Origin: Christensenella sp. UBA1224
GTDB taxonomy: Bacteria; Bacillota; Clostridia; Christensenellales; Aristaeellaceae
Assembly: GCA_002309235.1 (NCBI GenBank)
Contig: DBXA01000185.1
Coordinates: forward strand, 6,418-45,175
DNA: 38,758 nucleotides
Reading direction: 5' to 3'
Of the stretch, positions 8,307 to 35,719 are shown piece by piece. Numbering within the stretch: position 1 is the stretch's first letter; each line of letters opens with the position of its first letter. Position numbers and translations under genes: made by a program. The notes beneath the pieces are model-generated. The model made no database searches, was not told where the DNA came from, and was given only the letters and a program-made list of their open reading frames with translations.

Positions 8307-8341
8307 TCTTTCTGAACGATCTGGTATAGGGAGTGCGAAGG

Positions 8342-9436: not shown

Positions 9437-9457
9437 CAGGGGAAGGGGGACAGGAAT

Positions 9458-10552: not shown

Positions 10553-10593
10553 TATTGAGCTGCGTGAACGAAAAATGAAACGGAGGGGATGGC

Positions 10594-11691: not shown

Positions 11692-11715
11692 GACGGAAAA
11701 GAGGGGGACAGGATC

Positions 11716-12810: not shown

Positions 12811-12831
12811 CAGGTGAATGGAGGCGTGAAT

Positions 12832-13926
12832 GTGAAACCTTTTGAAAAGCTGCACCGGGGCATGGGTGTGGGTGGTTGGATGACGAACTACAAGCGCGTG
12901 CGGTTTCTGCCGCAGGATATGGCATACAACATCACTGTAGGTGACCGCGAGCATTTCGAGCGCTTTCTGACCGAGTGGGACATCCGGAATATACGCTCCA
13001 TGGGCATGGATCATATCCGCATTCCATTCGACCAGGTCGTGATCGAGGAATATGAGAAGCCGTTTCAATACCGTGAGGATATGCTCCTGCTGCTTGACAG
13101 AATGATCGGTTGGGCTCTGGATGCAGGATTTGAGGTCATTCTGAACATGCATCACGCAATAGGCTGTTATTGCGATTTCGCGGAAGCAGCTACTCTTACG
13201 GAGGATGAGCAGCTGAAACAGCGTTTCCTTCGGGCATGGGAGATGCTGGAAGATCGCTACCACGATCTGGATATCATCTTTGAGCCGCTCAATGAAGTGA
13301 CGACACCGGATGCAGAGGCCTGGAACATGCTGGCGGAGCGCTGCGTAAAAGCGATACGGGCGAAGAACCCGACACGCCGTATCATCATAGGCTCCACACA
13401 GATGAACCGTGTGGACCGCCTGCCGGAATTGAAACTGTATGACGATGAATATATCGCATATACCTTCCATTTTTATGGCCCGATGGTATTCACTCATCAG
13501 AGGAAAACGACCGGTGCTATGCTGTACGCTTACAACCGGGAAGTACCGTATCCCGGAGATAATTCGTACTATAAAGATTATGCTGTTTTTTCCGGGGCGG
13601 ATCCAGCAGAATTTGATCCTTATCCGATCGTCGGACGGGAATATGTGGAGCATTTGCTGCGATACGCGGTGGAATTCAAACAGGCGCATCCGGAGAAGGT
13701 CCTGTGGTTTGGAGAATTCGGTACGATTCGTCATGCCAATATCATCTGGCGCGAAAATTGGATGAGGGATGTGATTCGCTTCTCCATACAGCATGATATT
13801 CCTTACAGTGTGTGGAATTACCTTTCTACGCCTTACGACTGTAATAAGTTTTCGCTTGTTACGGATGATGAACGCCGCATCGTCAGCCCTGAGATGCTCA
13901 GGATCATACAGGGTGATGTGGATTGA
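12832..13926 (+). CDS. Glycoside hydrolase family 5, CelC-like, cytoplasmic (paralogue 6)
   Basis: The ORF track starts at 12814. I prefer GTG 12832 (VKPFEKLHRG), 7 nt after GGAGG, which gives 364 aa. Motifs: HIRIPF, LNMHHAIG, EPLNEV, FHFYGP, FGEFG, VWNY. Confidence 0.9.
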   Translation: MKPFEKLHRGMGVGGWMTNYKRVRFLPQDMAYNITVGDREHFERFLTEWDIRNIRSMGMDHIRIPFDQVVIEEYEKPFQYREDMLLLLDRMIGWALDAGFEVILNMHHAIGCYCDFAEAATLTEDEQLKQRFLRAWEMLEDRYHDLDIIFEPLNEVTTPDAEAWNMLAERCVKAIRAKNPTRRIIIGSTQMNRVDRLPELKLYDDEYIAYTFHFYGPMVFTHQRKTTGAMLYAYNREVPYPGDNSYYKDYAVFSGADPAEFDPYPIVGREYVEHLLRYAVEFKQAHPEKVLWFGEFGTIRHANIIWRENWMRDVIRFSIQHDIPYSVWNYLSTPYDCNKFSLVTDDERRIVSPEMLRIIQGDVD

Positions 13927-13946
13927 GATATAAGGAGATGGATAAC

Positions 13947-14954
13947 ATGGACAAACGCAGCTTTCCCATTGTAGGAATGATACTTGGCGACCATGCAGGG
14001 ATCGGGCCGGAGATCGCGGCTATGACACTTTCACAGCGCAGCGATATGAACTTCGCGCCTGTCCTGGCGGGCAGTCTGAAGCTTTTCCGGCGTGCTATGG
14101 CCCTGGTACCCGGCAGCGCGGAGAAGCTTGATATCGTGGATATCACACGAGATCCGTCTGTTGAAAAACAGCCAGGCAAGGTGTATTTCTATGATATACC
14201 GACTCGCGGAGATATTCCCTTCAGCCAGATCAATGCGGCCAGCGGACACCTGATATTTGACAGTATGCAGGCGATCATCCAAATGGAAAAAAAGGGACTG
14301 ATCGATGGCTTCGTCATGGGACCTATCACGAAACAAGCGCTTCATGCAGCGGGGCTCAACTATTCTTCAGAGTTTGAGATTTACAAGGAAGCGTACAATA
14401 CGCCGGTATGCCGTGCAGTTATCAAGGCAGGTGATATCTTCCGCTGCACTGTTGTAGGACATGTACGGTTTACTGAGATCGTTTCACACCTGACGCCGGA
14501 TGGCATTGTCGATACCGCGCATGCACTGCTCGGTGTTATAAGACGTTTCCATAAAGAGGGGAATATCCGTATAGCTGTAGCGGCGCTGAATCCGCATGCA
14601 GGGGAGGATGGACTGTTTGGAGATGAAGAGTCCACCATCATCCAGCCTGCGATCGATCGCTTGTTGGCGGAGGGAGTGGATGTCATTGGACCGAGCCCTG
14701 CGGATACCGTATATCGCCGGGCACAGACGGGAAAGGTGAATGGTATCGTTTACCTGTATCATGACCAGGGCAATATTGCCATGAAAGCCGCTTCGTTCGG
14801 CGATGGCGTCCTCATTTATACGGGTGTTCCGGCGCGTATCGTATCTGTGGGACATGGCGGGGCATTCGGTTCCGCAGGCAAGGGTACAGCCAGTCCGGCC
14901 AATCTCACGGCCAGCCTTGATACGCTGTTGGAAATGATCAGGGAGGAGATCTGA
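13947..14954 (+). CDS. PdxA-family NAD-dependent hydroxyacid(-phosphate) dehydrogenase (PdxA2-like), copy 1
   Basis: The ORF track starts at TTG 13923. ATG 13947 lies 9 nt after AAGGAG. GDHAGIGPEI, LNPHAGE and [11 protein letters not shown] match the conserved PdxA-family blocks (GxxxGIGPE, NPHAGE, YHDQG). Confidence 0.8.
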   Translation: MDKRSFPIVGMILGDHAGIGPEIAAMTLSQRSDMNFAPVLAGSLKLFRRAMALVPGSAEKLDIVDITRDPSVEKQPGKVYFYDIPTRGDIPFSQINAASGHLIFDSMQAIIQMEKKGLIDGFVMGPITKQALHAAGLNYSSEFEIYKEAYNTPVCRAVIKAGDIFRCTVVGHVRFTEIVSHLTPDGIVDTAHALLGVIRRFHKEGNIRIAVAALNPHAGEDGLFGDEESTIIQPAIDRLLAEGVDVIGPSPADTVYRRAQTGKVNGIVYLYHDQGNIAMKAASFGDGVLIYTGVPARIVSVGHGGAFGSAGKGTASPANLTASLDTLLEMIREEI

Positions 14955-14956
14955 GT

Positions 14957-15847
14957 ATGTATAAGCTTTCCGTAAAGCATGATCCTTATCTGAACATCCA
15001 TGTGGATTCCTATATCCTTAGGACCGATACGCACTGTGTATTCATTGACAGCGGCTTATATGGTCAGCACGAGCTTGTAGCTGAGGCTATGCAGGGCCGC
15101 GAAACGACGCTTCTGTGCACGCATGGTCACTGGGATCATATCGGCATGCACAAGACCATACAGGATATGGGGGGCCGTGTCCGGGCGAATATAGGTGACA
15201 AACCTTATTTTGAGGATCATGAATGGCACTGGAAAGAACTGTTCGGACAGTTTATGAATGACTGTACCATACCGCCTGCCAGGCGGGAGACCTATGTCGC
15301 GCGCGTCGGAAGCCCAATGGTGCCGGAATACGGGCTTGAAGATGGAGATATCCTTGACATAGGTGAAATGCGATTTCAGGTCATTGCCATACCCGGTCAC
15401 TCAAGGGGAAGCCTTGCTTTTCTCGAAATACATTCCGGAGCCCTGTTCACCGGGGATGGCTTGATCGGCAACGGTTTCTTTACCGGAACACCGCAGTATA
15501 TGAATGTGCCGGACTACTTGGCTTCAATGGAGAAACTTGCTCGTGTTTCATGCGAGACGGTTTATTCTGATCACGATCCCGTTATGCCCGGAAGCGGTCT
15601 TGCGGAGAAGGCACTTGCCGGGCGCGACTGCTGCCTGCGCATTGACAGAGTTGTGCGTGATCATGTGAAGCATCATGAAAAGGATGAAGACCTGTCACTC
15701 AATGAGATGATAGAAGCGGTCCATGCGGAAGAAGGCAGGGGTGTAGGAGCGGGCATGTGCGTGACGGTACTCGCTCACCTTGAAAATATCGAGGATCCGC
15801 CAAAATGTGTGGTCAAATGCCTGAACAGGTATATTCACGGGATTTGA
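14957..15847 (+). CDS. MBL-fold metallo-hydrolase
   Basis: 296 aa. THGHWDH (the HxHxDH zinc motif), then IPGHSRGS and a later DH, in the order typical of the metallo-beta-lactamase fold. Confidence 0.8.
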   Translation: MYKLSVKHDPYLNIHVDSYILRTDTHCVFIDSGLYGQHELVAEAMQGRETTLLCTHGHWDHIGMHKTIQDMGGRVRANIGDKPYFEDHEWHWKELFGQFMNDCTIPPARRETYVARVGSPMVPEYGLEDGDILDIGEMRFQVIAIPGHSRGSLAFLEIHSGALFTGDGLIGNGFFTGTPQYMNVPDYLASMEKLARVSCETVYSDHDPVMPGSGLAEKALAGRDCCLRIDRVVRDHVKHHEKDEDLSLNEMIEAVHAEEGRGVGAGMCVTVLAHLENIEDPPKCVVKCLNRYIHGI

Positions 15848-15861
15848 CGGAGGCGTTTGAT

Positions 15862-16626
15862 ATGTTTGATTTTACGGATAAAGTTGTTGTCGTGACAGGT
15901 GCTTCCGGTATCGGGATCGGACGTGAGATCGCCGGGCGCTTTTATCAGGCCGGTGCACACATTGCGATCTGCTCTCGTTCACAGGAGCGTATAGATGCGG
16001 CTGCGAGGGAAATAGCTGGGGAAAAAGCAGCAGATATCCTTGCAATGCAGGCAGATATGTCGTCCGTTGAGGAAATACGTGCCTTCATAGACACTGCGGC
16101 AGAAAGGTTTGGCAGGATCGATATCCTTATCAATAATGCGGGTGTGCAGTTTCCAAAACCATCGCTTGAAGTGACGGAGGAGGACTGGCAGCGTACGGAG
16201 GATACGAATCTGCGCGGGTATTTCTTCGCGGCACAGCGAGCGGCTATGTATATGATGCGATCCGGCGGAGGCGCTATTGTCAACATAGGCTCGGTCAATG
16301 CAGTAACAGTTGTACCCGGACAGGCTGTTTACGCGGCAACAAAGGCCGGTATTTCACAGATGACAAAGAGCCTTGCGCGGGAATGGGGCCGCAGCGGCAT
16401 ACGTGTGAACTGCGTAGGACCGGGTTCGATCCCCACACTGATAAATGCAGAGATATACAAGGATCCTGCGGTCGACCGCGCTATGTGCGAAAAGATACCC
16501 ATGGGCAGGAGGGGAACGACGCGCGAGATCGCGGATGCGACTCTTTACCTGGCAAGTGATTACGCGAGCTACATTACAGGACAGACATTGTTTGTGGATG
16601 GCGGGCTTACGCTGGTCCATGGATAA
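15862..16626 (+). CDS. SDR family oxidoreductase, copy 1
   Basis: Trimmed from 15805 to ATG 15862 (MFDFTDKVVVVTGASGIGIG), 5 nt after GGAGG. TGxxxGIG cofactor motif, NNAG, and YAATK (YxxxK). Confidence 0.85.
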   Translation: MFDFTDKVVVVTGASGIGIGREIAGRFYQAGAHIAICSRSQERIDAAAREIAGEKAADILAMQADMSSVEEIRAFIDTAAERFGRIDILINNAGVQFPKPSLEVTEEDWQRTEDTNLRGYFFAAQRAAMYMMRSGGGAIVNIGSVNAVTVVPGQAVYAATKAGISQMTKSLAREWGRSGIRVNCVGPGSIPTLINAEIYKDPAVDRAMCEKIPMGRRGTTREIADATLYLASDYASYITGQTLFVDGGLTLVHG

Positions 16627-16643
16627 ATAGAAGGAGGGTTTTT

Positions 16644-17522
16644 ATGAAGATCGGTTTTATAGGACTTGGCATTATGGGAAAACCAATGGCATTGAATCTG
16701 ATCAAAGGCGGTCACGAGCTTTGTGTTTATGATGTTGTCAAGGAGCGAGTAGAGGAAGTTGCCTCTGCCGGTGCGAAAGCCGCATGTTCAATCGCAGAAG
16801 CTGTAAAGGATGCGGAGTTTGTCGTCACGATGCTCCCGAACTCCCCACACGTAAAGGAAGTCGTTTGCGGGGAAGGCGGTGTCCTGTCAGCGGCTAAACC
16901 GGGGACGATCCTGATCGACATGAGCTCTATCGCTCCGGCGGCTTCACAGGAAGTTGCAGCGAAATGTGCTGAAAAAGGCGTAAAGATGCTGGAAGCGCCT
17001 GTCAGCGGAGGCGAGCCGAAGGCGATCGATGGGACGGTTTCATTCATGTGCGGCGGTGAGGAAGAGGTGTTTGAAAAGTGCAGGCCGATCCTTGCCCTGA
17101 TGGGGAAGGATATCGTTCTGTGCGGGCCGAGCGGAGCAGGAAATACCGTAAAACTGGCAAACCAGATCATCGTTGCAGTCAATATCGCAGCTGTCGCAGA
17201 AGCTTTCATGCTGGCGCGCCAGGCGGGTGTCGAGCCACAGACTGTGTTTGAAGCGATACGCGGCGGCCTTGCGGGAAGCACTGTTCTGAACGCAAAGGGC
17301 TCTATGATGATCGCTCAAAATGTGAATCCTGGTTTTAAGATCGATCTGCACATCAAGGATCTGAACAATGTAGTAGATACTGCGCACCGAAACGGTACGC
17401 CTATTCCCATGACGAGCGTCGTGATGGACATGCTCCAGAACCTGCACCTGCGCGGTATGGGTGGCTGCGATCACAGCGCCATCGCGAAGTATTATGAGTA
17501 TCTGACGGGTGTTAAGATCTGA
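16644..17522 (+). CDS. NAD(P)-dependent beta-hydroxyacid dehydrogenase (2-hydroxy-3-oxopropionate reductase / 3-hydroxyisobutyrate DH family), copy 1
   Basis: 292 aa. MKIGFIGLGIMGKPMALNL Rossmann start, LEAPVSGGEPKA, KLANQIIVA and DLHIKDL are family hallmarks (GarR/GlxR/YgbJ-type). AAGGAGG RBS. Confidence 0.85.
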   Translation: MKIGFIGLGIMGKPMALNLIKGGHELCVYDVVKERVEEVASAGAKAACSIAEAVKDAEFVVTMLPNSPHVKEVVCGEGGVLSAAKPGTILIDMSSIAPAASQEVAAKCAEKGVKMLEAPVSGGEPKAIDGTVSFMCGGEEEVFEKCRPILALMGKDIVLCGPSGAGNTVKLANQIIVAVNIAAVAEAFMLARQAGVEPQTVFEAIRGGLAGSTVLNAKGSMMIAQNVNPGFKIDLHIKDLNNVVDTAHRNGTPIPMTSVVMDMLQNLHLRGMGGCDHSAIAKYYEYLTGVKI

Positions 17523-17635: not shown

Positions 17636-18928
17636 TCAGTGATTAGGAAGGACCTTCCAGATCTTCATGGATCCGGGCGACAGCCAGTTTCCCGCATAAT
17701 GCGGTTCATGCCACCATCCCGCCTTTATTCCTTCTCCGGCAGGTGTAGTTCCCATGTGATATTCTGCTTCAGGGACTTCCTCCCATTGCAATCCGCATAC
17801 ATCGATCACATTAAGCCCCTTGCGGAAATACAGATAGCACTGATTCGCTTCGGTTTGCGAATTGTTTGTGATCGAGTAATAGAGAGTGCCGTCCTGATGC
17901 CGGAATCTGGAGACGATCGCTTCATGTGCGGCTTCGACGTAGATGAGGTTTTCGTCTTCTTCTTCACAGAACAAGGGGTAGTTTGCAAATGATTTCTTTG
18001 CATGCCATACCTTTTCGAGTTTGAGCTTTGGTATGAGACTGCCATATGTCTTGTGGAAGGTGCGGTTGATGCGGGCAACCTTTTCGAATTGGCTGGAGCG
18101 TTCATAATGTTCGTCGATGGGGGCAAGCCCATAACGGCCTGTCATACGGCGATTATAGAAGAAATAGCCCATTATCCCATCTGCACCATGTGCAATGGAA
18201 GTGTACAGCTGCCAGCGAAAATCGTTTTCTGTGACTTCGCGATAGCGGAAATGCCCTGTCATGAGAACTGTGTTGAGGAAAGGTACACCTGTTCGCAGGG
18301 ACATATCACGGAATACCTCAAGGTTATGGAAGTATTCTGTAAGCCCCTCTCCATCCGGGAGCAGTTGTGTATAGCAGTCATATCCGGTAAGGCCAAGATG
18401 CGCATCGTTAACGATATCAGTCAAGACATCTTGATACTTCTTGCCGCCCTGACCGAGGCGTTCAGGTCCCCAACCGAAGCTCCAGGGGGCAAAGTTGACA
18501 AACATCTTCTTTTCTGGAATCACTTCCGAAACGATTTGAGAAACCTTAATGGTGTTTTTTACTTCGATCAATCCCCTCATGCAGCCCGGCTCATCCAATA
18601 TGAAGATGGAGTCTACAGCAGGATGGAGTCCAAAATCATTGCGAAGCTGCAATGCAGCACTTCGTACTCTGTCTTCATCAAAGCGATCTGGGAACCAGGC
18701 TTTCTTGAGCCGCAGATCGTAAAACATTACATGGATATCCCTGCGAGCGGCTTCATCAAGGAGTTCAAACATAGCTTCCCTGCTTCCGGGAAATTCGGAA
18801 TACATTGGTGACATAGCCAATGTCATTCCAGCTTCGTCCCATTCTTGTACAATCTCCCGCGGTCGTTTCCAAATCTCAGGCAGTTCAAATTCACAAAGAT
18901 TCCAGAATCCGATTGGGTACTTTTCCAT
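17636..18928 (-). CDS. Hypothetical cytoplasmic protein, possibly a TIM-barrel glycoside-hydrolase-like enzyme
   Basis: The ORF track starts at TTG 18934. ATG 18928 (MEKYPIGFWN) lies 7 nt after GGAGG. No signal peptide and no motif I can name. The alternating pattern and genomic context suggest a glycosidase-like barrel. It starts 14 nt after the AraC-2 stop, so it is probably co-transcribed. Confidence 0.6.
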   Translation of the reverse strand: MEKYPIGFWNLCEFELPEIWKRPREIVQEWDEAGMTLAMSPMYSEFPGSREAMFELLDEAARRDIHVMFYDLRLKKAWFPDRFDEDRVRSAALQLRNDFGLHPAVDSIFILDEPGCMRGLIEVKNTIKVSQIVSEVIPEKKMFVNFAPWSFGWGPERLGQGGKKYQDVLTDIVNDAHLGLTGYDCYTQLLPDGEGLTEYFHNLEVFRDMSLRTGVPFLNTVLMTGHFRYREVTENDFRWQLYTSIAHGADGIMGYFFYNRRMTGRYGLAPIDEHYERSSQFEKVARINRTFHKTYGSLIPKLKLEKVWHAKKSFANYPLFCEEEDENLIYVEAAHEAIVSRFRHQDGTLYYSITNNSQTEANQCYLYFRKGLNVIDVCGLQWEEVPEAEYHMGTTPAGEGIKAGWWHEPHYAGNWLSPGSMKIWKVLPNH

Positions 18929-18942
18929 AATCAAGCCTCCGT

Positions 18943-25710: not shown

Positions 25711-26700
25711 ATGGACATTAGATCATGTGGCGAAATGATCCGTAAATATGGCTTGATTGCTTCGCTTGGTTCAAATGCAAGGGATGCTGCAAGCGCATTC
25801 TCGAAGAATTGGGTACGTGTTTTTGAAGTATCTGATTCCGAAAAATGCCGAGAAATCCGGACTGTATGTTCTGATGCTGTCATTGGTGTGGCTGGGATCG
25901 AGGATGAAGAAGGCTGCCGCAATGCTATAGCATGTGGTACTTCTTATATTTCAACCTTTGGAGTCGATGACGATATTGCTTGTATCTGCCGGGAAAATGA
26001 AACGCTTTATATACCTTCGTGTTCTACTGCGGCGGAAATCTACCAAGCAAAAAAGTCAGGCTGCGGGATCGTAAAGTTTTATCCGGCCGGCTTATGTGGC
26101 GCTGTGGAGATGGTAAAAGCATTCGGTGAGAGATTCCCGGATGTGCTGTTGATCCCTGAAGGCCAGGTGGAGATTGGGAATATAGGGGATTATTCCTGCC
26201 TTAAAAATGTCTGCGCAGTTCAGCCTTCTGGCCTTCGGGTGGAAAACGTACAGGAGGCTGTCAGATGCCTGATTGGCTTTGAAATGTATCATATGGGTAT
26301 TAATATGCCTTCTGCGGCGGATTCGCAGGCTTTGGCTGCCAAATTCCGCGACGCTTTCGGCTTTGAAGCTGGTGAAGGTCCTTTTGCGTACTATTCCAGC
26401 CAGAATCTCCGCGTTATTGATAGCGTGCTTTTTGACTGTAATAAAAAAGCTGTTGTGGGAGGACCGGGCGCGTTTTATCAGACAGCAGACTTTGAGATCA
26501 TGAAGACTATGTCACGTGGAAAGAACGGACATATTGGTATTCGCGTTAATGATGGGCTTCGGGCAGTCGCATATCTGGAGGAAAAGGGTTGGATGATGGA
26601 GCCATCTACTTATTTCTATACAGACGGAAGGATTTTTACTGTATATTTGAAGGATGAGGACTTTGGCGGATTTGCCGTACATCTTCTCCAAAAATTTTAA
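25711..26700 (+). CDS. Eda (KDPG/KHG aldolase)-like domain fused to a C-terminal VOC/glyoxalase-like domain
   Basis: 329 aa. The N-terminal ~200 aa align by eye with E. coli Eda: VRVFEVS vs VRVLEVT, VIGVAGI vs IVGAGTV, IVKFYPAG vs FKFFPAE (Schiff-base Lys kept), LLIPEGQV vs RFCPTGGI. The C-terminal ~130 aa (MYHMGINMP...GHIGIRVND...AVHLLQK) look like a VOC-fold module. Confidence 0.55.
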   Translation: MDIRSCGEMIRKYGLIASLGSNARDAASAFSKNWVRVFEVSDSEKCREIRTVCSDAVIGVAGIEDEEGCRNAIACGTSYISTFGVDDDIACICRENETLYIPSCSTAAEIYQAKKSGCGIVKFYPAGLCGAVEMVKAFGERFPDVLLIPEGQVEIGNIGDYSCLKNVCAVQPSGLRVENVQEAVRCLIGFEMYHMGINMPSAADSQALAAKFRDAFGFEAGEGPFAYYSSQNLRVIDSVLFDCNKKAVVGGPGAFYQTADFEIMKTMSRGKNGHIGIRVNDGLRAVAYLEEKGWMMEPSTYFYTDGRIFTVYLKDEDFGGFAVHLLQKF

Positions 26701-27720: not shown

Positions 27721-28859
27721 TGGATATTCTTGAAGAAGCACGTCAGTTTCGAAGAGACCTGCACAGGATACCGGAATTAGGTTTTCAGGAACATGAAACG
27801 TGTAATTATCTTTGGAAAATTTTGAAGGAAACTTTGCCGGATTCTCTGGACATTTTCTGCGGCACAGGGATCCGAGCAGTCTATAGGTGTAATGTTCCAC
27901 ACAGCGAAACAGTAGCATTCCGTGCGGATATGGACGCCTTGCCTATATGTGAAGAAACCGGGCTCACGTTTGCTTCTGTTCATGAAGGCGTTATGCATGC
28001 GTGCGGCCATGATGGTCATATGGCGGCTCTTCTCTTGCTTGCCAGGAAAATCTCGAGAGAGAGGGAAAAGCTCTGCCGAAATGTTGTGTTGATTTTCCAG
28101 CCTTCCGAGGAAACCCGTTGCGGTGCGGCAAAAATGGTAGCAGCGGGTGTCCTGGAAAAACCTGACATAGATAGGATTTACGCTTGTCACTTGTGGCCTG
28201 GGATCAGAAAAGGTTATTTTGCGACAAAGGCAGGCGTGCTTATGGCACAGGCTTGTTATCCTGATATTACGATCGATGGACAAGCAGCGCATGGAGCCAA
28301 TCCGGATCAGGGCTCGGATGCTGTGGTGGCGGCTTCCGGCTTGATCCAGGCGTTGCAGACGGTCATTTCCCGCAACACGCCGCCTGAGAGGGCGGTAGTT
28401 ATCACCTTTGGCCGAATTGAAGGCGGTGCGGGGCGTAATATCATACCGGCGCATGTTCGAATGGAAGGGACTGTTCGTGCATTTAGTGCGGAAGATTTCG
28501 ATCGGACAATAAAACGAATGGAGGAAATCATCCTGGGTATCGGAACGGCATACAATGTACGTATAGAAATGAAAACAAATGATCATTATCCATGCGTTGA
28601 TAATGATGTATCTCTGGCAGAAGGGCTAAGACGCTTACTCGGCAGCAGGCTGGAATTAGCTGAACCTGTACCAAATGCAGAGGATTTTTCGTATTACCAG
28701 CTAAAGGTGCCTGGTGTTATGTTATTCGCAGGTATCGACGATGGTGTGCATGAGACAAGGCTTCACAGCCCGCGTTTTAACTTTGATGAGGCGATTTTGC
28801 CAGATATGGCGGATCTTTACTGGCGCATCATACAACAGGATCGGGAGGAGTTAATATGA
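27717..28859 (+). CDS. M20D-family amidohydrolase (N-acyl amino acid / amino-sugar-type deacylase)
   Basis: The start ATG 27717 overlaps the upstream stop as ATGA. FRRDLHRIPELGFQEHET, MHACGHDGHMAALL and FQPSEE are the signature blocks of hippurate-hydrolase/ILR1-type M20D enzymes. Confidence 0.85.
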   Translation: MMDILEEARQFRRDLHRIPELGFQEHETCNYLWKILKETLPDSLDIFCGTGIRAVYRCNVPHSETVAFRADMDALPICEETGLTFASVHEGVMHACGHDGHMAALLLLARKISREREKLCRNVVLIFQPSEETRCGAAKMVAAGVLEKPDIDRIYACHLWPGIRKGYFATKAGVLMAQACYPDITIDGQAAHGANPDQGSDAVVAASGLIQALQTVISRNTPPERAVVITFGRIEGGAGRNIIPAHVRMEGTVRAFSAEDFDRTIKRMEEIILGIGTAYNVRIEMKTNDHYPCVDNDVSLAEGLRRLLGSRLELAEPVPNAEDFSYYQLKVPGVMLFAGIDDGVHETRLHSPRFNFDEAILPDMADLYWRIIQQDREELI

Positions 28860-29749
28860 ATATAGGGTTTATTGGATTAGGTGTCATGGGAAAACCTATG
28901 GCAGGAAATCTGCTCAAAGCAGGTTATTCGTTGAAGGTATATGATATTGATCCGAACAGCGTAGCTGTGATGGCGGAACAAGGAGCGATAAAGGCAATAA
29001 GTGCAAAAGATGCTGCACAGGATGCCGATGTCGTAATCACAATGCTGCCTGATGGGCCACAGGTCAAAAGTGTGATTTTGGGAGAAGATGGCCTGATCAA
29101 TGTCATGAAATCTGGCAGCATACTGCTTGATATGAGCAGCATTTCACCTGTAGATAGTGTCAAAATTGCACGGGAGTTGGAAAAGAAAGGTATATCCATG
29201 TTGGATGCGCCGGTCTCGGGAGCATATGCCAAAGCAGTAGATGGCACGCTTTCGATCATGGTAGGCGGCCATGAGGAAGATCTTGCAAAAGTCATGCCGC
29301 TTCTGGAAGTATTGGGAGGAACGATCGTGCATATCGGGCCTTCCGGCAGCGGAAGTGCCTGCAAGCTTGCAAATCAGATCGTTATAGCTGCAGGGATCGC
29401 TGCTGTCGGCGAGGCGTTCATGCTCGCTAAACTCCAGGGATGCGATCTCGAAAAAGTATTTACGGCGGTCAGCAGCGGGTTTGCGGGCTCTACACTGATG
29501 AATTCAACCGTACCGAGAATGCTTGCTGGCAACTACGAGCCTGGATTCAGAATCGATCTGCATCTCAAGGATATCCGCAATGCAGTAAATGCGGGTGATG
29601 CTTGCGGCGCTCCTATGCCTCTGGCTAAGCATATGCTGAGTGTTTTGACCGAGTTATCAAAACAGGGAGACGGCAGCCTTGACAACAGTGGGATTGTTCG
29701 ATATTACGAAAAGACAACGGGAAAAGTGTTTAAGGAAGGTGATGATTGA
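28856..29749 (+). CDS. NAD(P)-dependent beta-hydroxyacid dehydrogenase (2-hydroxy-3-oxopropionate reductase / HIBADH family), copy 2
   Basis: 297 aa. The ATG overlaps the upstream stop (ATGA). MNIGFIGLGVMGKPMAGNL, LDAPVSGAYAKA, KLANQIVIA, DLHLKDI. Paralogue of 16644..17522. Confidence 0.85.
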   Translation: MNIGFIGLGVMGKPMAGNLLKAGYSLKVYDIDPNSVAVMAEQGAIKAISAKDAAQDADVVITMLPDGPQVKSVILGEDGLINVMKSGSILLDMSSISPVDSVKIARELEKKGISMLDAPVSGAYAKAVDGTLSIMVGGHEEDLAKVMPLLEVLGGTIVHIGPSGSGSACKLANQIVIAAGIAAVGEAFMLAKLQGCDLEKVFTAVSSGFAGSTLMNSTVPRMLAGNYEPGFRIDLHLKDIRNAVNAGDACGAPMPLAKHMLSVLTELSKQGDGSLDNSGIVRYYEKTTGKVFKEGDD

Positions 29750-29750
29750 A

Positions 29751-30773
29751 ATGGGAAAAGGTGATATCCCTGTTCTGGGATTGATGCTGGGAGATCATGC
29801 CGGTTGCGGACCAGAGCTTGTGGCAAAGGCTCTTCTGGCAAAAAAAACAGACAACTATACAGCGGTACTAGTAGGCAATCGGGAGCGCTTCGAAAAGTCG
29901 CGAACTTGTGTGGAAGGCGCTGAAAATATTCAGATAATCCCGTGGGATGGATCTGACAGGCCAGAGCAGGCGTCAGGTTGTACAGCGTATTTCTATGATG
30001 TTCCTGCTGGACCAGATATAGAATTCGGTAAAGCAACGGCAGATGGGGGGCGTCTGATCTTTGACAGTATCAAGGCGGCAATAGAATTGCAGAATGCAGG
30101 AAAGATAGACGGCATTCTCATGGCTCCGATTACGAAAGCAGGCCTCCATATGGCCGGTTACACTTATACATCGGAATTTGAACTGTTTGGTGACCTATAT
30201 GGTACAGGGGAAGCGGCATCTGTTCTGAAGTGCGAAAACTACTTCCGTGCGACAGTCGTCGGGCATTGTGCATTTCGTGAGATTGCTGACAGGATAACAA
30301 CGGAACGTATTCTTGTCACGGCTCATAGACTCCTGGATAAAATGAGTGTCTTCCTTAAGCCGGATGATATTCGTATAGCGATTGCGGCCTTAAATCCGCA
30401 TGCCGGCGAAGGCGGATTGTTTGGAAATGAGGAAGCGACTGTAATACAGCCGGCGATCGATCAGCTGCGTGATGAAGGTTTTAATGTAGCAGGACCATGG
30501 CCTAGTGATACCGCTTTGAATAGGGTGAGATCAGGAGAAGCTAATGGAATCGTATACCTCTACCATGATCAGGGTAATATCGCAATGAAGGCTGTTAATT
30601 TCGGCGGTATAATTCTTATGTATGTGGAGATTCCGGGATTGATTGTTTCTGTCGGCCATGGCCCTGCCATGGACAAGGCGGGCACTGGTCAAGCAACCGC
30701 TGTTAATATCATTGAAAGTATCAATGTCCTGACGATGCTTTCAAAAAAGAAATTGGCAGGTGAAAAGTATTGA
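29751..30773 (+). CDS. PdxA-family NAD-dependent hydroxyacid(-phosphate) dehydrogenase (PdxA2-like), copy 2
   Basis: Trimmed from 29679 to ATG 29751 ([22 protein letters not shown]), directly after the upstream stop. [18 protein letters not shown]. Confidence 0.8.
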
Positions 30774-31531
30774 GTGAGTTTACTGGAAAGACTGTTATTG
30801 TTACTGGGGCTTCCAGTGGTATCGGTAAAGGAATTGCACGAAGATTCTTTCAGGAAGGGGCGAATATGGCCCTTTGCAGCCGTTCAAAAGAGAGAGTTGA
30901 TCAAGCGGCCGCAGAGTATGCAAACCTTCCGGATGAGCGCATATTCTCAATGGATTGCGACATGTCGGATACAGCAGCTATTCGATCTTTTGTCAAAGCC
31001 GTTATAGAGAAATACGGGTCAATTGATATCCTTGTGAACGATGCTGGACTTAGTTTTCCAACGCCCTCTCTGGAATTTACGGAAGAACATTGGGATACGA
31101 CCTTCGATGTTAACATCAAAGGGATGTTTTTCATGAGCCAGGAAGTTGTACGGTATATGATAAAGGCAGGCAAAGGCGCTATTGTCAATATCGGTTCCGT
31201 CAACTCTGTGACGGTTGTGATTGGACAAGCGGCATACGCAGCGTCAAAAGCCGGTATATCTCAGATGACGCGCAGCCTTGGCAGAGAATGGGCGCGCAGC
31301 GGCATCAGAGTGAACTGTGTTGCCCCTGGAAGCATTCCGGCTAAATGCAATGAAAAGATGTATTCAGATCCGGAAGTACTTAAGGCGATGTGTGATAAGA
31401 TTCCTATGGGACGCAGGGGGGAAGTGGACGAGATAGCGGATGCAGTCCTTTTCCTGGCATCTTCCAGAGCAAGTTATATCACGGGACAGACTTTGTTTGT
31501 AGACGGCGGTCTTACGCTGGTACAAGGATAG
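30770..31531 (+). CDS. SDR family oxidoreductase, copy 2
   Basis: The TTG start overlaps the upstream [27 protein letters not shown]. Paralogue of 15862..16626. Confidence 0.85.
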
Positions 31532-31544
31532 GAGGTTATTCATT

Positions 31545-32219
31545 ATGGAAAAGAAGATCAGGGTAGGCGTGGTACACACATTTCTTTACTCGGTGGAGGA
31601 TATCAAGGCCCAATTCCGTGCGCAGCTGCCGGAAGTTGAGATGATCAACATCATCGACGACAGCCTATTGGAGGAAGCGCTGGCACACGGAGCCATCACG
31701 AGTGGTATCATTGCCCGTATGTGCGATTACTACCAGAACCTGCAGGATTTGGGGTGTGTCTGTGCCTTGAACCAATGTTCGTCGGTAGGCGAAGCCTCGG
31801 ATATCGCTGGAAAACTGATCGATGTTCCGATCTTTAAGATCGACAGGCCTATGGCAAAGCGTGCAGCAGAGCTCGGTGAGAGGGTAGCTGTGATAGCGAC
31901 AGCATGCTCCACAGTAGAGCCTTCCAGCCGCCTGGTAGAGACAGAAGCGGCGAAGCTCGGCAAAAAGGTAACGGTAGACCGCTGCTTTGTGGAAGGCGCG
32001 TATGACTTCCTGCTGAAGACGGGCGATAAGCAGAAACACAATGAGATGGTGATCGCCAAAGTGGAAAAAGCGGCTGAGGATCATGATGTCATCGTACTGG
32101 CACAGGGATCAATGTTCCATCTTATGCCGCTGCTGGGACATATCAAAGTGCCGGTGTTGACGAGCCTTGAGACGGGTATCGCTCAGATCCGCGGCTATCT
32201 GGACAGTCTGAAAGCATAA
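31545..32219 (+). CDS. Asp/Glu/hydantoin racemase-family protein (single-Cys variant)
   Basis: 224 aa, AGGAGG RBS. CALNQCSSVGE...DVPIFKI...GERVAVIAT...DVIVLAQGSMF aligns by eye with the hydantoin racemase pattern IACFGDPG...PVIGI...VVTT...IVLGCAGM. Confidence 0.65.
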   Translation: MEKKIRVGVVHTFLYSVEDIKAQFRAQLPEVEMINIIDDSLLEEALAHGAITSGIIARMCDYYQNLQDLGCVCALNQCSSVGEASDIAGKLIDVPIFKIDRPMAKRAAELGERVAVIATACSTVEPSSRLVETEAAKLGKKVTVDRCFVEGAYDFLLKTGDKQKHNEMVIAKVEKAAEDHDVIVLAQGSMFHLMPLLGHIKVPVLTSLETGIAQIRGYLDSLKA

Positions 32220-32240: not shown

Positions 32241-33296
32241 ATGAAAAAGATACGTGTTGGAGTAGCGGGATACGGTACGATCGGCCAGAGGCTGGCGGAT
32301 GGTGTGGCAATGCAGGGAGATATGGAACTGGTCGGTATCGCTGATCTGGCGCCTACTCTGTCGATACGGGCACTGGCAGAAAATGATATGATCGGCGCGA
32401 ACGGCGTGAAGTATGATCTGTATCTGGTGGAAGGCGCTGAGAAGAGCCAATTTGATGAGCTTGGTATCCCTGTTGCCGGCACATTTGAAGAGCTCATCAA
32501 GAGTGTCGATATCATGCTGGACAGTGCACCGGGCGGCGTAGGGGCGAAGAACAAAGTGCTCTATGAGAAATACGGCGTAAAAGCCATATTCCAGGGCGGA
32601 GAGAAGAATTCCGTTGCGGATGTATTCTTCCATGGATATGCGAACTATGAAAAAGGCGTAGGAGCACAGTACCTGAAACTGACAAGCTGCAATACCACCG
32701 GCCTGATCCGTGCGGTCGATGCTCTGGATCGTGAGATAGGAATAGAAAAGGTAGCGATCACGATCATCCGCCGTGTGGCTGATCCGGGAGATTATCATCG
32801 TGGACTTACTAACGCGCTTCAGATGGAAAAAGCACCTTCGCACCAAGCGGTTGACTTGATGACGATCATGCCGCATGTTGAAGCGACCGGTATACTGGTA
32901 CATACGCCGGTAACGCATGGGCATATCATCACGGTTCTCGCTACGGCGAAGGATGGAAAGAAGATCACGAAGGAAAAAGCACTGGAGATATTCAAAAAAC
33001 ATCCGCGCATCCGCGTGGTCTCGATCGCGGAAGGGTTCAAGGGAAACGCGAGTCTCTTCAAGTATGCACGTGATCTGGGCAACAGGCGCGGTGATATGTA
33101 TGAGATAGGTCTGTGGGAGGATTCAATCGTTGAGTCTGGCAATGATATCATGTTTGCGATCAATATCCCGCAGGAATCCGTTACGATTCCTGAGACGATA
33201 GATGGTATCCGTGCTGCAATGTGCATGCAGAAGACGCGTGAGGAAGGAACGGCAGAAACGAATAAATACCTGAATATCGGCAAATTCAAGAAATAA
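32241..33296 (+). CDS. Class II (archaeal-type) glyceraldehyde-3-phosphate dehydrogenase homologue
   Basis: 351 aa. VGVAGYGTIGQRLA Rossmann start. The active site reads LTSCNTTGL, which is the SCNTT order of archaeal class II GAPDH rather than bacterial SCTTN. AAGGAGG RBS. Confidence 0.8.
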   Translation: MKKIRVGVAGYGTIGQRLADGVAMQGDMELVGIADLAPTLSIRALAENDMIGANGVKYDLYLVEGAEKSQFDELGIPVAGTFEELIKSVDIMLDSAPGGVGAKNKVLYEKYGVKAIFQGGEKNSVADVFFHGYANYEKGVGAQYLKLTSCNTTGLIRAVDALDREIGIEKVAITIIRRVADPGDYHRGLTNALQMEKAPSHQAVDLMTIMPHVEATGILVHTPVTHGHIITVLATAKDGKKITKEKALEIFKKHPRIRVVSIAEGFKGNASLFKYARDLGNRRGDMYEIGLWEDSIVESGNDIMFAINIPQESVTIPETIDGIRAAMCMQKTREEGTAETNKYLNIGKFKK

Positions 33297-33312
33297 GCAG
33301 ATTGATAAGGAG

Positions 33313-33343
33313 CGGACGGGGATACTATATGTATCTCCGTCCG
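33313..33343 (+). other. 12-bp stem-loop in the GAPDH-PGK intergenic region
   Basis: CGGACGGGGATA (33313-33324) pairs with TATCTCCGTCCG (33332-33343), with one G-U pair and a 7-nt loop. Only TTT follows, so it is not a canonical terminator. Confidence 0.5.
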
Positions 33344-33361
33344 TTTGAGCGGAGGCAGAAA

Positions 33362-34621
33362 ATGAGATTTGGTATATACACGCTGGACGATTATGATCTG
33401 AAAGGTAAAACGGTTCTGTGCAGGGTGGATATGAATCAGCCGGTCGACCGTGTTTCAGGTAAACTGAAGAGCACGCAGAGGATCAAAGCCTGCGCGCCGA
33501 CGGTCAGGGAGCTTTCCGATAAAGGCGCGAAAACGGTTGTTTTGGCCCATCAGGGGAGCGATATCGAATATAAAAATTATTATACGACGGAGCCTCATGC
33601 CAAGACGTTGGAAGAATTTGTCGGAAAGCCGGTAAGCTTTATCGACGATGTCTGCGGACCGGCAGCAAGGCAGGCTATTTCAGATTTGAAGGAAGGAGAG
33701 ATACTGCTGCTTGATAATGTTCGTTTCTGCGCAGAAGAACAGACGCTCTTCGAGACAAAGTTGTGCCTCACGCATGAAGAGCAGGCGCATACGCAGGTGG
33801 TGGAGAAGCTTGCGCCGCTCGCAGATCTGTATGTCTGCGATGCGTTTGCAGCGGCACACCGGGACCAGCCGACATTATGCGGCTTCGAACAGGTACTTCC
33901 TTCTGCGATGGGCCGGCTTTTCGAGAAGGAATACTGCGTGGTTTCGGAATTGATGGAAGCGCCTGCTCATCCATGTGTTTTCGCCTTGGGCGGAGCAAAG
34001 ATATCGGATGCTTTTATGATGATGGAAACCGTTCTGAAAGCGGGTACTGCGGATGTGATCCTGACGGGCGGTCTCGTGGGAGAGATCCTTCTGGCTTCGC
34101 AGGGCATAGAGATCGGGAAGGGAACTATGGATTTCATTCTCCGTTCCAATTATGGGGAATTCATTGAGAAGGCGAAGGATATCTACGCAAAATACGCAGG
34201 CAGCATTGTGTTGCCTGTTGACCTGGCTTGCGTCAAGAATGGCAAGCGCGAAGAAGCCCGCGTCGGGGTTATCCCAGCCGATTTTGATTCTTCGGATATC
34301 GGTTCCATGACAGCTGCACAATACCGGGATAAGATCCTCGGAGCAGCTACTGTGTTCGTGAACGGGCCTATGGGGATATTCGAGCAGAAGGAAAGTGAAC
34401 TGGGAACAAAGGTGGAATTTGAAGCATTGGCGGAGACAAAGGCATATACCGTAGTCGGAGGCGGTGACAGCGTGACGGCGGCAAAGCAATACGGGGTGAC
34501 GGATAAGATCGGTTACGTATGCACAGGCGGAGGCGCGCTCATCCGTTTCCTGACAGGTGAAGAACTGCCTGTCGTGAAAGCGCTCAGGCATGCGGCAAAA
34601 ACGTTTCCGGCGGATCGTTGA
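33362..34621 (+). CDS. pgk: Phosphoglycerate kinase homologue, archaeal-like
   Basis: Trimmed from 33302 to ATG 33362 (MRFGIYTLDDY), 7 nt after GGAGG. RVDMNQPV, VVLAHQG (archaeal AHQG rather than bacterial SHLGRP), LLLDNVRF, DAFAAAHR, LGGAKISD, GGGDS and CTGGGA are PGK blocks. Confidence 0.8.
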   Translation: MRFGIYTLDDYDLKGKTVLCRVDMNQPVDRVSGKLKSTQRIKACAPTVRELSDKGAKTVVLAHQGSDIEYKNYYTTEPHAKTLEEFVGKPVSFIDDVCGPAARQAISDLKEGEILLLDNVRFCAEEQTLFETKLCLTHEEQAHTQVVEKLAPLADLYVCDAFAAAHRDQPTLCGFEQVLPSAMGRLFEKEYCVVSELMEAPAHPCVFALGGAKISDAFMMMETVLKAGTADVILTGGLVGEILLASQGIEIGKGTMDFILRSNYGEFIEKAKDIYAKYAGSIVLPVDLACVKNGKREEARVGVIPADFDSSDIGSMTAAQYRDKILGAATVFVNGPMGIFEQKESELGTKVEFEALAETKAYTVVGGGDSVTAAKQYGVTDKIGYVCTGGGALIRFLTGEELPVVKALRHAAKTFPADR

Positions 34622-34654: not shown

Positions 34655-35719
34655 ATGAAAATATATAAAATGGCGGTCATAGCCGGTGACGGTATCGGGC
34701 CGGAAGTTCTCAGGGAAGGAATAAAGGTGCTGGATACAGTCGCAGAAAAGGATGGCGGTTTCCGCTTTGAATGGACGTATTTTCCATGGGGCTGCGAATA
34801 CTACCTGAAGCATGGCAGGATGATGGCAGAAGACGGGATAGAGACGCTGAAGGGTTTTGATGCGATCTACCTTGGCGCGGTCGGAGCGCCTGGTGTACCG
34901 GATCATATCTCATTGTGGGATCTGTTGCTCGTGATCCGCAAGAGTTTTGATCAATATGTGAATCTGCGCCCGGTAAAGCTGCTGCGAGGTGCACCTTGTC
35001 CGCTTAAAGATGCAAAGCGCGAAGATATCGATATGGTATTTGTGCGGGAGAACAGTGAAGGCGAATATGCGGGCAGCGGTAGTTGGCTTTACAAAGGCAA
35101 GCCGAATGAAGTAGTGATTCAGAACGGCGTTTTTTCACGCGTAGGCTGCGAACGGGTGATCCGGTATGCATATGAGCTTGCCCGCAGAGACAGGAAGACG
35201 CTGACAAGTGTAAGCAAAGGGAACGCGCTGAACTATTCGATGGTGTTCTGGGATCAGATATTCAAAGAAGTAGGAAAGGAATACCCGGATGTAGAGACGC
35301 ACAGCCTGCTGGTAGATGCCGCGAGCATGTTTATGGTAAAGGACCCAAAGAGATTCCAGGTTGTTGTGACAAGCAATCTTTTCGGCGATATTCTTACCGA
35401 TCTTGGTGCAGCGATCTCGGGGGGCATGGGGCTTGCGGCAGGAGCAAACCTGAACCCGGAGAGGAAATATCCCTCTATGTTCGAACCGATACACGGTTCT
35501 GCCCCGGATATCGCGGGCAAAGGAATAGCTGACCCACTGGCTTCTATCTGGTCTGCCAGTCAGATTTTGGACTTTTTCGGAGAAGAAGAATGGGGAAAGA
35601 AGATCCTTGGAGCAATCGAACAGCTGCTTACGGAAGGGAAGACGCTTACGCCTGACATAGGCGGTACGGCATCCACATCCGAAGTCGGCAGTGCTGTGGC
35701 AGAGATACTGCGGAGATAA
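34655..35719 (+). CDS. Tartrate dehydrogenase/decarboxylase / D-malate dehydrogenase (isopropylmalate-DH superfamily)
   Basis: 354 aa. Near-colinear match to my memory of E. coli DmlA: IAGDGIGPEV, FDAIYLGAVG.P.VPDHISLW, FDQYVNLRPV, VRENSEGEY, SNLFGDILTDLG, NLNPER.YPSMFEPIHGSAPDIAGKGIA(D/N)P. Confidence 0.85.
   Translation: MKIYKMAVIAGDGIGPEVLREGIKVLDTVAEKDGGFRFEWTYFPWGCEYYLKHGRMMAEDGIETLKGFDAIYLGAVGAPGVPDHISLWDLLLVIRKSFDQYVNLRPVKLLRGAPCPLKDAKREDIDMVFVRENSEGEYAGSGSWLYKGKPNEVVIQNGVFSRVGCERVIRYAYELARRDRKTLTSVSKGNALNYSMVFWDQIFKEVGKEYPDVETHSLLVDAASMFMVKDPKRFQVVVTSNLFGDILTDLGAAISGGMGLAAGANLNPERKYPSMFEPIHGSAPDIAGKGIADPLASIWSASQILDFFGEEEWGKKILGAIEQLLTEGKTLTPDIGGTASTSEVGSAVAEILRR

Follow-up and report, generated by a model that had tools for sequence, protein, structure and literature searches.

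An archaeal-class GAPDH and PGK pair of bacterial sugar-catabolic operons as candidate enzymes for the oxidation of D-malate semialdehyde to D-malate

The class II glyceraldehyde-3-phosphate dehydrogenases (GAPDH) and the phosphoglycerate kinases (PGK) of archaea act on glyceraldehyde 3-phosphate (GAP) and 3-phosphoglycerate (3-PG), mostly in gluconeogenesis. Homologues of both enzymes are encoded side by side in a stretch of 38,758 nucleotides from the bacterium Christensenella sp. UBA1224 (contig DBXA01000185.1, positions 6,418 to 45,175), the whole of which is hereafter called the window. The GAPDH homologue, or GAPDH2 (351 aa; positions 32241..33296 of the window), and the PGK homologue (419 aa; 33362..34621) correspond to two open reading frames (ORFs) that were both confirmed on the + strand. 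Folds, family models, the SCNTT motif, His219, Arg167/168 and the 'HQ' motif are common to this pair and to the archaeal enzymes, such as the GAPDHs of M. fervidus (1cf2) and P. horikoshii (2czc) and the PGK 2cun. However, the clade described here is bacterial and its genes are adjacent in catabolic operons. It also differs from the archaeal enzymes by the replacement of Lys33 by Asp and of His194 by Gln in GAPDH, by the loss of Arg65 in PGK and by the remodelling of two neighbouring loops. We propose that the pair belongs to a subfamily of archaeal-class enzymes found in bacteria, which was taken out of glycolysis and would oxidise D-malate semialdehyde, via an acyl phosphate, to D-malate with formation of ATP. 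The probability of this reading is estimated at about one half.

Many loci related to that of the window contain genes of inositol catabolism. In the canonical route of the Bacillus subtilis type (IolG-IolE-IolD-IolB-IolC-IolJ-IolA), the first four enzymes make 5-dehydro-2-deoxy-D-gluconate from myo-inositol. IolG, IolE, IolD, IolB and this intermediate are common to the related loci, whereas the kinase IolC, the aldolase IolJ and the CoA-acylating dehydrogenase IolA are exchanged for a split transketolase, GAPDH2, PGK, a nickel-dependent malate racemase (Mar) and a malic enzyme. The predicted products are therefore a C2 unit, D-malate and ATP, in place of the dihydroxyacetone phosphate (DHAP) and malonate semialdehyde of the canonical route. 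Plants are thought to cleave 5-keto-D-gluconate, of which 5-dehydro-2-deoxy-D-gluconate is the 2-deoxy form, by a transketolase toward tartrate, and the sulfo-transketolase pathway is similar in its logic. In these routes, as in the one proposed here, transketolase strips the C1-C2 ketol unit from a ketose with an anionic tail, so that a shorter 2-hydroxy aldehyde-acid remains. In contrast to them, the aldehyde would be oxidised here through an acyl phosphate with a gain of ATP, and not by a simple aldehyde dehydrogenase or reductase.

Other described systems resemble the pair in their chemistry. In the biosynthesis of the phosphonate valinophos, PGK and GAPDH homologues act on analogue substrates, in a reductive and biosynthetic direction. 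A synthetic malyl-phosphate pathway to 2,4-dihydroxybutyrate starts from L-malate and relies on an engineered aspartate kinase and Asd, working reductively (PMC12104201). Malyl phosphate, a malate semialdehyde and the combination of a kinase with a phosphorylating dehydrogenase are found in that pathway as in the present proposal, but its semialdehyde is the 2-hydroxy-4-oxo isomer, formed by reduction, whereas the natural module would oxidise the D-configured 3-hydroxy-4-oxo isomer. E. coli Epd (PMC12041015) is a GAPDH paralogue whose substrate has an altered distal group; unlike the pair, it is a class I enzyme that works alone and on a phosphorylated sugar. As for inositol, a 2026 study of its fermentation by a gut Oscillospiraceae species (see also this work for the steps from IolG to IolB) proposed ad hoc aldolases after 5-dehydro-2-deoxy-D-gluconate (PMC13311982), and two further papers (PMC13617567, PMC12130570) mention none of the genes considered here in such a role. 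Neither a module made of type II GAPDH, PGK, transketolase and malate racemase nor a natural malate-semialdehyde dehydrogenase is described in the full-text literature searched, which covers few of the subscription journals. The module is widespread in bacteria and apparently undescribed.

In most related genomes, the route would proceed as follows. IolG, IolE, IolD and IolB would convert myo-inositol to 5-dehydro-2-deoxy-D-gluconate, from which the split transketolase would remove the C6-C5 ketol to leave D-malate semialdehyde. By our own reasoning, this sugar acid, seen from C6, is a ketose and has D-threo stereochemistry, as transketolase needs. The D-malate semialdehyde, (R)-3-hydroxy-4-oxobutanoate (OHC-CHOH-CH2-COO-), amounts to GAP in which a carboxylate replaces the phosphate ester. 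The GAPDH homologue would act as a phosphorylating D-malate-semialdehyde dehydrogenase, turning this aldehyde, NAD+ and phosphate into the acyl phosphate. The PGK homologue would act as a D-malyl-phosphate:ADP phosphotransferase, forming D-malate and ATP by substrate-level phosphorylation. They are proposed for these roles because they are the only candidate aldehyde oxidisers in these operons. Since both enzymes are D-specific, oxidation of a D-configured 2-hydroxy aldehyde would give D-malate and not L-malate, which would explain the presence of a racemase. In most related loci, D-malate would then be made usable by Mar and malic enzyme. In the window, a member of the tartrate dehydrogenase / decarboxylating D-malate dehydrogenase family (TTC) would replace both and take D-malate directly to pyruvate and CO2. 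Such a breakdown of inositol and related sugars by gut anaerobes would be free of kinase and aldolase, and the scheme would account for the full gene content of the operons as well as for the missing IolC, IolJ and IolA.

The linkage of these genes recurs in a large set of bacteria. A search with the GAPDH protein of the window returned thousands of relatives, of which the best 120 are 85-100% identical and come, as far as named, from Oscillospiraceae, Lachnospiraceae, Faecousia and other Clostridia. Counting one genome per species, at least 510 species genomes contain GAPDH copies that are 79-93% identical, and all the named ones are bacterial; Spirochaetales, Erysipelotrichaceae and Christensenellales are among them. 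With the more distant GAPDH2 of Kosmotoga (67% identical) as query, many additional relatives were found in cultured anaerobes (Kosmotoga, Marinitoga, Thermodesulfobium, Caloramator, Tepidanaerobacter, Carboxydocella and Clostridium thermosuccinogenes). An earlier note on this DNA had suggested, as one possibility, that the pair was acquired horizontally. Neither the GC content nor the skew of the window shows a sharp break at the pair, hence a recent island is not apparent from composition; on the other hand, transfer of the GAPDH clade among bacteria is likely, because such identity (79-93%) is retained across Bacillota, Spirochaetota and others.

Neighbouring genes were tallied in 114 loci with GAPDH2 (numbered below as L001 and so on), on the same strand and within eight genes, the ORFs being annotated against a labelled reference set. 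The counts are lower bounds, as many loci end at contig borders. PGK is found in 91 of these loci, a LarA-family racemase in 76 and the split transketolase in about 58. IolD follows with 50, IolE with 43, and IolB and an IolG-like gene with 41 each; malic enzyme is present in 35. The racemase-like protein encoded next to the pair in the window (called AGR, see below) is a neighbour in 21 loci. Tartrate dehydrogenase is found in two, and a class II aldolase (IolJ-like) also in two, both from one organism. In the related loci, IolC- and IolJ-like genes are almost always missing near the pair and no conserved gene of the size of IolA was seen; likewise, the loci inspected show neither tpi nor eno next to the pair.

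In complete genomes of two cultured anaerobes, the entire enzyme set forms one operon. In Kosmotoga pacifica (CP011232.1), a single operon reads GAPDH2-PGK-Mar-TktN-TktC-IolB-IolD-IolE-IolG-IolG-malic enzyme, where TktN and TktC are the two parts of the split transketolase. That of Carboxydocella thermautotrophica (CP028514.1) reads ABC transporter-GAPDH2-PGK-TktN-TktC-IolB-IolD-IolE-IolG-Mar-PFK-malic enzyme. In the same way, a contig of the C. thermosuccinogenes type carries LacI-GAPDH2-PGK-TktN-TktC-IolB-IolD-IolE-IolG. None of these three operons includes IolC, IolJ, IolA or any aldehyde dehydrogenase. The GAPDH copies of the transketolase-type loci and of those with AGR are intermixed by identity and do not form separate clades, which leads us to expect that the enzyme of the window has the same specificity as the Iol/transketolase copies. 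Furthermore, the closest relatives of the window GAPDH (93%, among the matches listed) sit in Iol/transketolase/Mar loci.

Other genes can stand upstream of the same enzymes. In some loci, IolN (3-dehydro-scyllo-inosose hydrolase, 280 bits for a cut-off of 245) and an IolO-like epimerase, both belonging to the Thermotoga-type inositol route, directly precede GAPDH2-PGK-Mar-Tkt; in others, an HpcH/HpaI aldolase and an aldehyde:ferredoxin oxidoreductase lie nearby. Several upstream pathways thus seem to converge on one end-module. Such upstream genes of the IolN or HpcH/HpaI type are seen, for instance, at L018:7928-9978 and L108:2088-2942.

The LarA neighbour of L001 matches the model NF052593 ('nickel-dependent malate racemase, LarAH6 family') with 558.7 bits for a cut-off of 500, and the Kosmotoga copy falls just under it with 498 bits. 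The best PDB match of the latter is the malate racemase Mar2 (6d6z), with 344 bits versus 222 for lactate racemase. The gene of about 390 aa adjoining the LarA neighbour is a malic enzyme. LarAH6/Mar2 is an experimentally established malate racemase whose in vivo role was described as open (PMC7583248, PMC11770544). The context analysis of its discoverers found an association with malic enzyme of only 15%, and Mar has a weak side activity, the epimerisation of D- and meso-tartrate (PMC7583248). This is the family of the racemase next to the pair in the 76 loci counted above, and the window, which holds no Mar copy, has TTC instead. The TTC gene (34655..35719, + strand) matches TIGR02089 with 503.8 bits (cut-off 470.4), and its product is closest, among proteins of known structure, to the tartrate dehydrogenase/decarboxylase of P. 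putida (3flk, 378 bits); it adjoins the pair in the window, in L092 and in L097. Two alternative sinks for D-malate are proposed beside the pair, namely Mar with malic enzyme, or TTC. A comparison of the phosphate-binding residues of the transketolases with a fragment of E. coli TktA was discarded, the reference being unreliable and split transketolases differing generally.

The GAPDH homologue is a member of the archaeal class by family models and nearest solved structures. It matches NF003251 ('type II glyceraldehyde-3-phosphate dehydrogenase') with 398.2 bits for a cut-off of 185 (E 2.7e-119) and TIGR01546 with 298 bits for a cut-off of 232.9. In the PDB, it matches at E<=0.001 no sequences other than those of 2czc, 1cf2, 1b7g and 2yyy, which are all archaeal class II enzymes. 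The active-site order LTSCNTTGL, on which the earlier note had based the same assignment, contains the catalytic Cys150 (S149-C150-N151-T152); Cys150 and His226 align with Cys140 and His219 in M. fervidus numbering, which is used here after PMC12041015. The equivalents of the catalytic Ser-Cys-Asn-Thr and of His219 are invariant in 86 members of the clade and in 120 Kosmotoga-like homologues. The Ps anion site formed by Arg167 and Arg168 is kept as Arg177 and Arg178 (IIRRVAD) and is compatible with phosphate and carboxylate alike.

Two other positions set the homologue apart from the archaeal enzymes. Asp35, of the NAD type, replaces Lys33, and Gln202 replaces His194 of the inorganic-phosphate site, whereas the four archaeal structures all have the Lys and the sequence SHH. 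The homologue thus has neither the intact His193/His194 phosphate site nor the NADP-linked Lys33. The motif PSHQ, which holds this Gln, is matched as written in 67 of the 86 clade members and in 75 of the 120 Kosmotoga-like homologues, the remainder varying at flanking positions; for instance, the GAPDH2 of Kosmotoga itself reads PNHQAVD. Together with the catabolic setting, Asp35 points to the oxidative, ATP-forming direction over the reduction of a carboxylate.

As for the PGK homologue, it aligns over its full length with Pfam PGK (PF00162; 375 bits, E 5.4e-112, profile positions 1-379). The NCBIfam match listed for it is the PGK/TIM fusion model alone, with 306 bits for a cut-off of 883. 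Its best PDB match is the PGK of Pyrococcus horikoshii (2cun, 299 bits), ahead of the best bacterial PGK (224 bits). It has VVLAHQG where the bacterial PGKs of the same alignments have SHLGRP, so that the archaeal affinity claimed for it by the earlier note also stands. In PGK, Arg65, Arg122 and Arg170 are ligands of the 3-phosphate of 3-PG, His62 holds the ester oxygen, and Asp23 and Asn25 hold the 2-hydroxyl (PMC7729029). The window protein keeps His63, Arg121 and Arg167 at the corresponding positions and has Ser66 at that of Arg65, which leaves the basic patch His62/Arg65/Arg122/Arg170 incomplete. The ligands of the 2-hydroxyl and carboxylate (Asp23, Asn25 and Arg38) are kept as Asp23, Asn25 and Arg40.

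The loss of Arg65 is a property of a whole subfamily. The sequence AHQGSDIEY is found in 72 of 75 PGKs of the clade, and AHQGGDIEY in one. When 1.84 billion cluster representatives were searched exhaustively, the nearest PGK neighbours comprised 122 near-full-length representatives of 50%-identity clusters, of which 104 have Arg at this position. Eleven have Ser, Asp, Gly or Ala there and form a single neighbour-joining clade, which takes in the protein of the window, that of Kosmotoga (Asp) and a deltaproteobacterial one; the nearest named relative with Arg is from a Helarchaeota archaeon. The subfamily differs at other positions as well: its Arg65 loop has gained a Tyr and has Asn for Asp, two residues are inserted after the Arg122 loop, and the His of the GGGxS motif is changed to Asp. 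Taken together, the changes in both proteins fit an NAD-dependent catabolic enzyme and a substrate with a less negative distal group, without amounting to proof.

A further link between the PGK homologue and the racemase comes from a gene fusion. On a 47-kb metagenome contig, one ORF of 848 aa (L117:7419-9965) encodes both an Arg65-less PGK domain and a LarA domain, the latter matching the malate racemase family best. By its sequence, this is a Rosetta-stone link between the product of the PGK and the substrate of the racemase. Other PGK fusions among the representatives (P0139, P0212, P0216 and others) contain Arg65 or have unrelated partners and are uninformative.

In the window, the pair lies in a row of genes of one strand, AGR-GAPDH-PGK-TTC, separated by 21, 65 and 33 nt. 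This agrees with the placement given in the earlier note, between a racemase-like gene and tartrate dehydrogenase in a catabolic operon and not in a gap-pgk-tpi cluster. No tpi or eno gene is found near the pair in the window, so that the arrangement is not that of a gap-pgk-tpi(-pgm-eno) operon. The co-directional row begins with two ABC permeases, a solute-binding protein, a GH20-like protein, a KDPG-aldolase-like protein, a seven-bladed lactonase and an M20 amidohydrolase, and continues with a GarR-like β-hydroxyacid dehydrogenase (28856-29749), a PdxA-like dehydrogenase (29679-30773), an SDR (30770-31531), AGR, GAPDH, PGK, TTC and an S9 esterase. The GarR-like, PdxA-like and SDR genes, assigned by family models and all on the + strand, are probable upstream steps feeding the pair; the same families also precede AGR-GAPDH2-PGK in L093, L095, L097 and L133/L134. 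The end-module of the window (AGR, GAPDH and PGK) would then be fed by a different sugar-acid pathway, made of the SDR, lactonase, PdxA-like and GarR-like proteins. Apiose, tetronates, uronates and Dha, the acid of rhamnogalacturonan II, were considered as the origin of this pathway and no scheme fitted all the genes.

The AGR protein (31545..32219, + strand) has the fold of Asp/Glu racemases (Pfam PF01177). Whereas the Asp/Glu/hydantoin racemases have two catalytic cysteines, one on either side of the substrate, it has a single conserved Cys, Cys78, in NQCSSV, and the position of the second is occupied by the invariant LAQGSM. Its AlphaFold model (pLDDT 90.7) is nearest to Glu, Asp and allantoin racemases (TM 0.66-0.76), and these generic hits of the fold search give no functional clue. 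In sources, the family (window, L092-L128 and L133-L134) is annotated only as 'racemase family protein'. With AGR as query, 37 metagenome loci were retrieved, with AGR identity down to 54%; about 20 have GAPDH2, in most cases together with PGK and frequently also with Mar or malic enzyme. AGR and transketolase are never found in the same locus (0 of the 114), which suggests that they are alternative ways to deliver the substrate. AGR may thus supply or condition the aldehyde.

A related operon helps to understand the organisation of the window. It was found in L133/L134, the 10-kb flanks around P0425, a protein indexed in 341 blocks; the gut bacterium concerned is very common. After an AraC gene, the operon reads ABC-ABC-SBP-GH5-PdxA-MBL-SDR-AGR-GarR-GAPDH2-PGK-Mar-CE4 deacetylase-MOFRL glycerate kinase, where SBP is a solute-binding protein. 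The window contains a second, paralogous set of PdxA-like, MBL-fold hydrolase, SDR and GarR-like genes (13923..17522, + strand), downstream of six GH5 genes. The proteins of this first cluster (GH5 x6, PdxA, MBL and SDR) are 72-80% identical to the first half of the L133/L134 operon, and the GarR-like one 59%, while AGR, GAPDH2 and PGK of the window are 85%, 88% and 71% identical to its second half. The L133/L134 operon is probably the ancestral, unsplit form of the two clusters. The end-module of the window would have been separated and joined to the paralogous PdxA/SDR/GarR set, with TTC replacing Mar.

Several observations weigh against a function of the pair in the oxidation of D-malate semialdehyde. 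Both proteins score as true GAPDH and PGK in the family models, at the equivalog level for type II GAPDH and over the full length for Pfam PGK. Catalytic and most substrate-binding residues are intact, namely the catalytic Cys and His and Arg167/168 of GAPDH, and His62, Arg122, Arg170, Asp23 and Asn25 of PGK. Yeast PGK mutants of Arg65 are still active, so that the loss of this residue alone does not exclude 3-PG as a substrate. One lineage (20 loci) has an iPGM-like gene a single gene upstream of the pair, mostly with a GFO/IolG-like gene in between, and a PFK-family gene stands inside the Carboxydocella operon (L132). Furthermore, in L099/L100 (e.g. L100:1975-11435), from one organism, AGR-GAPDH2 is followed by a class II aldolase, IolB, IolG, a PfkB kinase, IolD and IolE; this IolC/IolJ-type cluster would yield DHAP, has neither PGK nor Mar in view, also lacks IolA, and is not predicted by the proposed scheme. 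All this could be expected if the two proteins were genuine NAD-specific GAPDH and PGK isoenzymes working on GAP, 1,3-BPG and 3-PG, an accessory lower-glycolysis pair for triose-phosphate flux that is expressed along with operons of sugar and inositol catabolism, with the racemase, malic enzyme and TTC forming an unrelated branch; an accessory pair was also the first possibility given in the earlier note. Such an explanation nevertheless seems unlikely, as it would leave the Kosmotoga and Carboxydocella operons without an oxidiser of the C4 aldehyde and would duplicate housekeeping steps, in schemes where transketolase would consume GAP and not make it. The absence of tpi and eno beside the pair, the Arg65-less PGK subfamily with two remodelled loops beside the phosphate site, and the fusion of PGK to a malate-racemase-like domain all argue against it, and the linkage with Mar (76/114) is far tighter than that with any glycolytic gene.

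The window itself raises a further difficulty. It contains neither transketolase nor Iol genes, and the scheme gives no route from the SDR, lactonase, PdxA-like, GarR-like and AGR proteins to the same aldehyde. Its product could be tartrate rather than malate, because Mar epimerises tartrate (D- and meso-, as a side activity) and TTC, a tartrate dehydrogenase by family, oxidises it. At least in operons of the window type, the same oxidative, ATP-forming acyl-phosphate chemistry might thus act on another aldehyde-acid, such as tartrate, tartronate or malonate semialdehyde, or on unphosphorylated glyceraldehyde. This would suit the GarR-like (tartronate-semialdehyde-reductase-like) genes of the window and L133, the MOFRL glycerate kinase of L133, and the HpcH/HpaI aldolases and the KDPG-aldolase-like gene, whose products release aldehyde-acids, in the vicinity of the pair (L108, L117 and the window); the IolJ-type cluster of L100 would, for its part, yield malonate semialdehyde. 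However, the malic enzyme of 35 loci accepts only malate, and the Iol/transketolase route would lead to a 2-deoxy product, hence to malate and not tartrate. Tartronate and malonate are achiral and need no racemase; a universal role of their semialdehydes was rejected, since it leaves both racemase and malic enzyme unexplained. The intermixing of the GAPDH copies of both context types also argues for a single specificity, and we regard another aldehyde-acid as an improbable substrate.

The general idea of the earlier note, a pair recruited to an analogue of the glycolytic substrates, is the one that the evidence favours. Its specific form is very improbable: PGK would activate a carboxylate of the 4-phosphoerythronate type and GAPDH would reduce the acyl phosphate to a tetrose phosphate, in connection with the PdxA-like genes. 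Kinase/reductase pairs such as ProB/ProA exist. The window does hold PdxA-like genes, and with Epd of E. coli there is a known case of a GAPDH homologue that acts on erythrose 4-phosphate (PMC12041015). Nonetheless, only 2 of the 114 loci have PdxA-like genes near the pair, to which L133/L134 can be added from outside the tally, and the conserved partners are Mar, malic enzyme or TTC, transketolase, IolB/D/E/G and AGR, of which Mar, malic enzyme, TTC, transketolase and the Iol genes would be left without a role. No kinase is present to make the 4-phospho-tetronate, the loss of Arg65, which binds phosphate, speaks against a distal group with a phosphate, and the NAD-type Asp35 in catabolic operons argues for oxidation.

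If the pair does oxidise D-malate semialdehyde, it would provide a new energy-conserving step in anaerobic sugar catabolism, with substrate-level phosphorylation on a non-phosphorylated C4 acid. It would also supply the reactions that follow 5-dehydro-2-deoxy-D-gluconate in the many anaerobes without iolJ and iolA, among them thermophiles and inhabitants of gut and rumen, and it would give a physiological role to the nickel-dependent malate racemases, called open by their discoverers (PMC7583248). Malyl-phosphate-type chemistry, so far only engineered for 2,4-dihydroxybutyrate, may then exist naturally with efficient enzymes, and at least 510 species genomes would probably be misannotated with 'type II GAPDH' and 'phosphoglycerate kinase'. 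More broadly, and with slightly less confidence than for the enzymatic assignment itself, we tentatively put forward a 'carboxy-glycolysis', in which GAPDH and PGK descendants specific for D-malate semialdehyde harvest ATP. With the split transketolase, they would constitute a new inositol pathway free of IolC, IolJ and IolA; they would also serve a second sugar pathway in the window and be a physiological source of D-malate for the nickel-pincer malate racemases.

Some loci contain additional proteins close to the pair. In the lineage with the iPGM-like gene (L001-L004, L011-L017 and others; e.g. L001:4284-8913), the iPGM-like protein is encoded behind a tandem array of three or four HAD-phosphatase paralogues. 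The iPGM model is matched in its C-terminal half by the N-terminal ~300 aa of this protein (residues 12-303 versus profile positions 213-504, in two stretches), which may be a circularly permuted relative of iPGM. In L089-L091 (e.g. L089:1671-2792) and L006, which include some of the closest relatives of the window, a protein of about 373 aa with a weak radical-SAM match is encoded between GAPDH2 and PGK.

Elsewhere in the window, the six tandem paralogous GH5 genes (7212-13926, + strand) encode proteins of about 365 aa each. These have no obvious signal peptide, their closest solved relative is CelC of C. thermocellum (1cec, 204 bits), and they seem to be glycosidases of the cytoplasm, encoded ahead of the first PdxA/MBL/SDR/GarR set. 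An ORF of 432 aa on the - strand (17636-18934) has no Pfam or NCBIfam match. The KDPG/KHG-aldolase-like ORF (25711-26700, + strand) has about 150 additional C-terminal residues that do not match Pfam. A scan for promoters and terminators between 20.7 and 37.7 kb gave counts equal to those expected from shuffled sequence.

Finally, the start of the PGK gene and the gap that precedes it deserve a comment. The start listed for this ORF, TTG at 33302, is probably wrong, and the ATG at 33362 (MRFGIYTLDD...) is favoured because the homologues have 416-422 aa and GGAGG lies seven bases upstream of it. In the resulting gap of 65 nt, between the stop codon of the GAPDH gene and the ribosome-binding site of the PGK gene, a stem-loop of 16 bp (33310..33346, + strand) was detected by folding against shuffled sequences. 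Its minimum free energy is -29.4 kcal/mol (z = -6.2), and none of 200 shuffles folds as well. It could be an intercistronic RNA element for processing, stability or attenuation.

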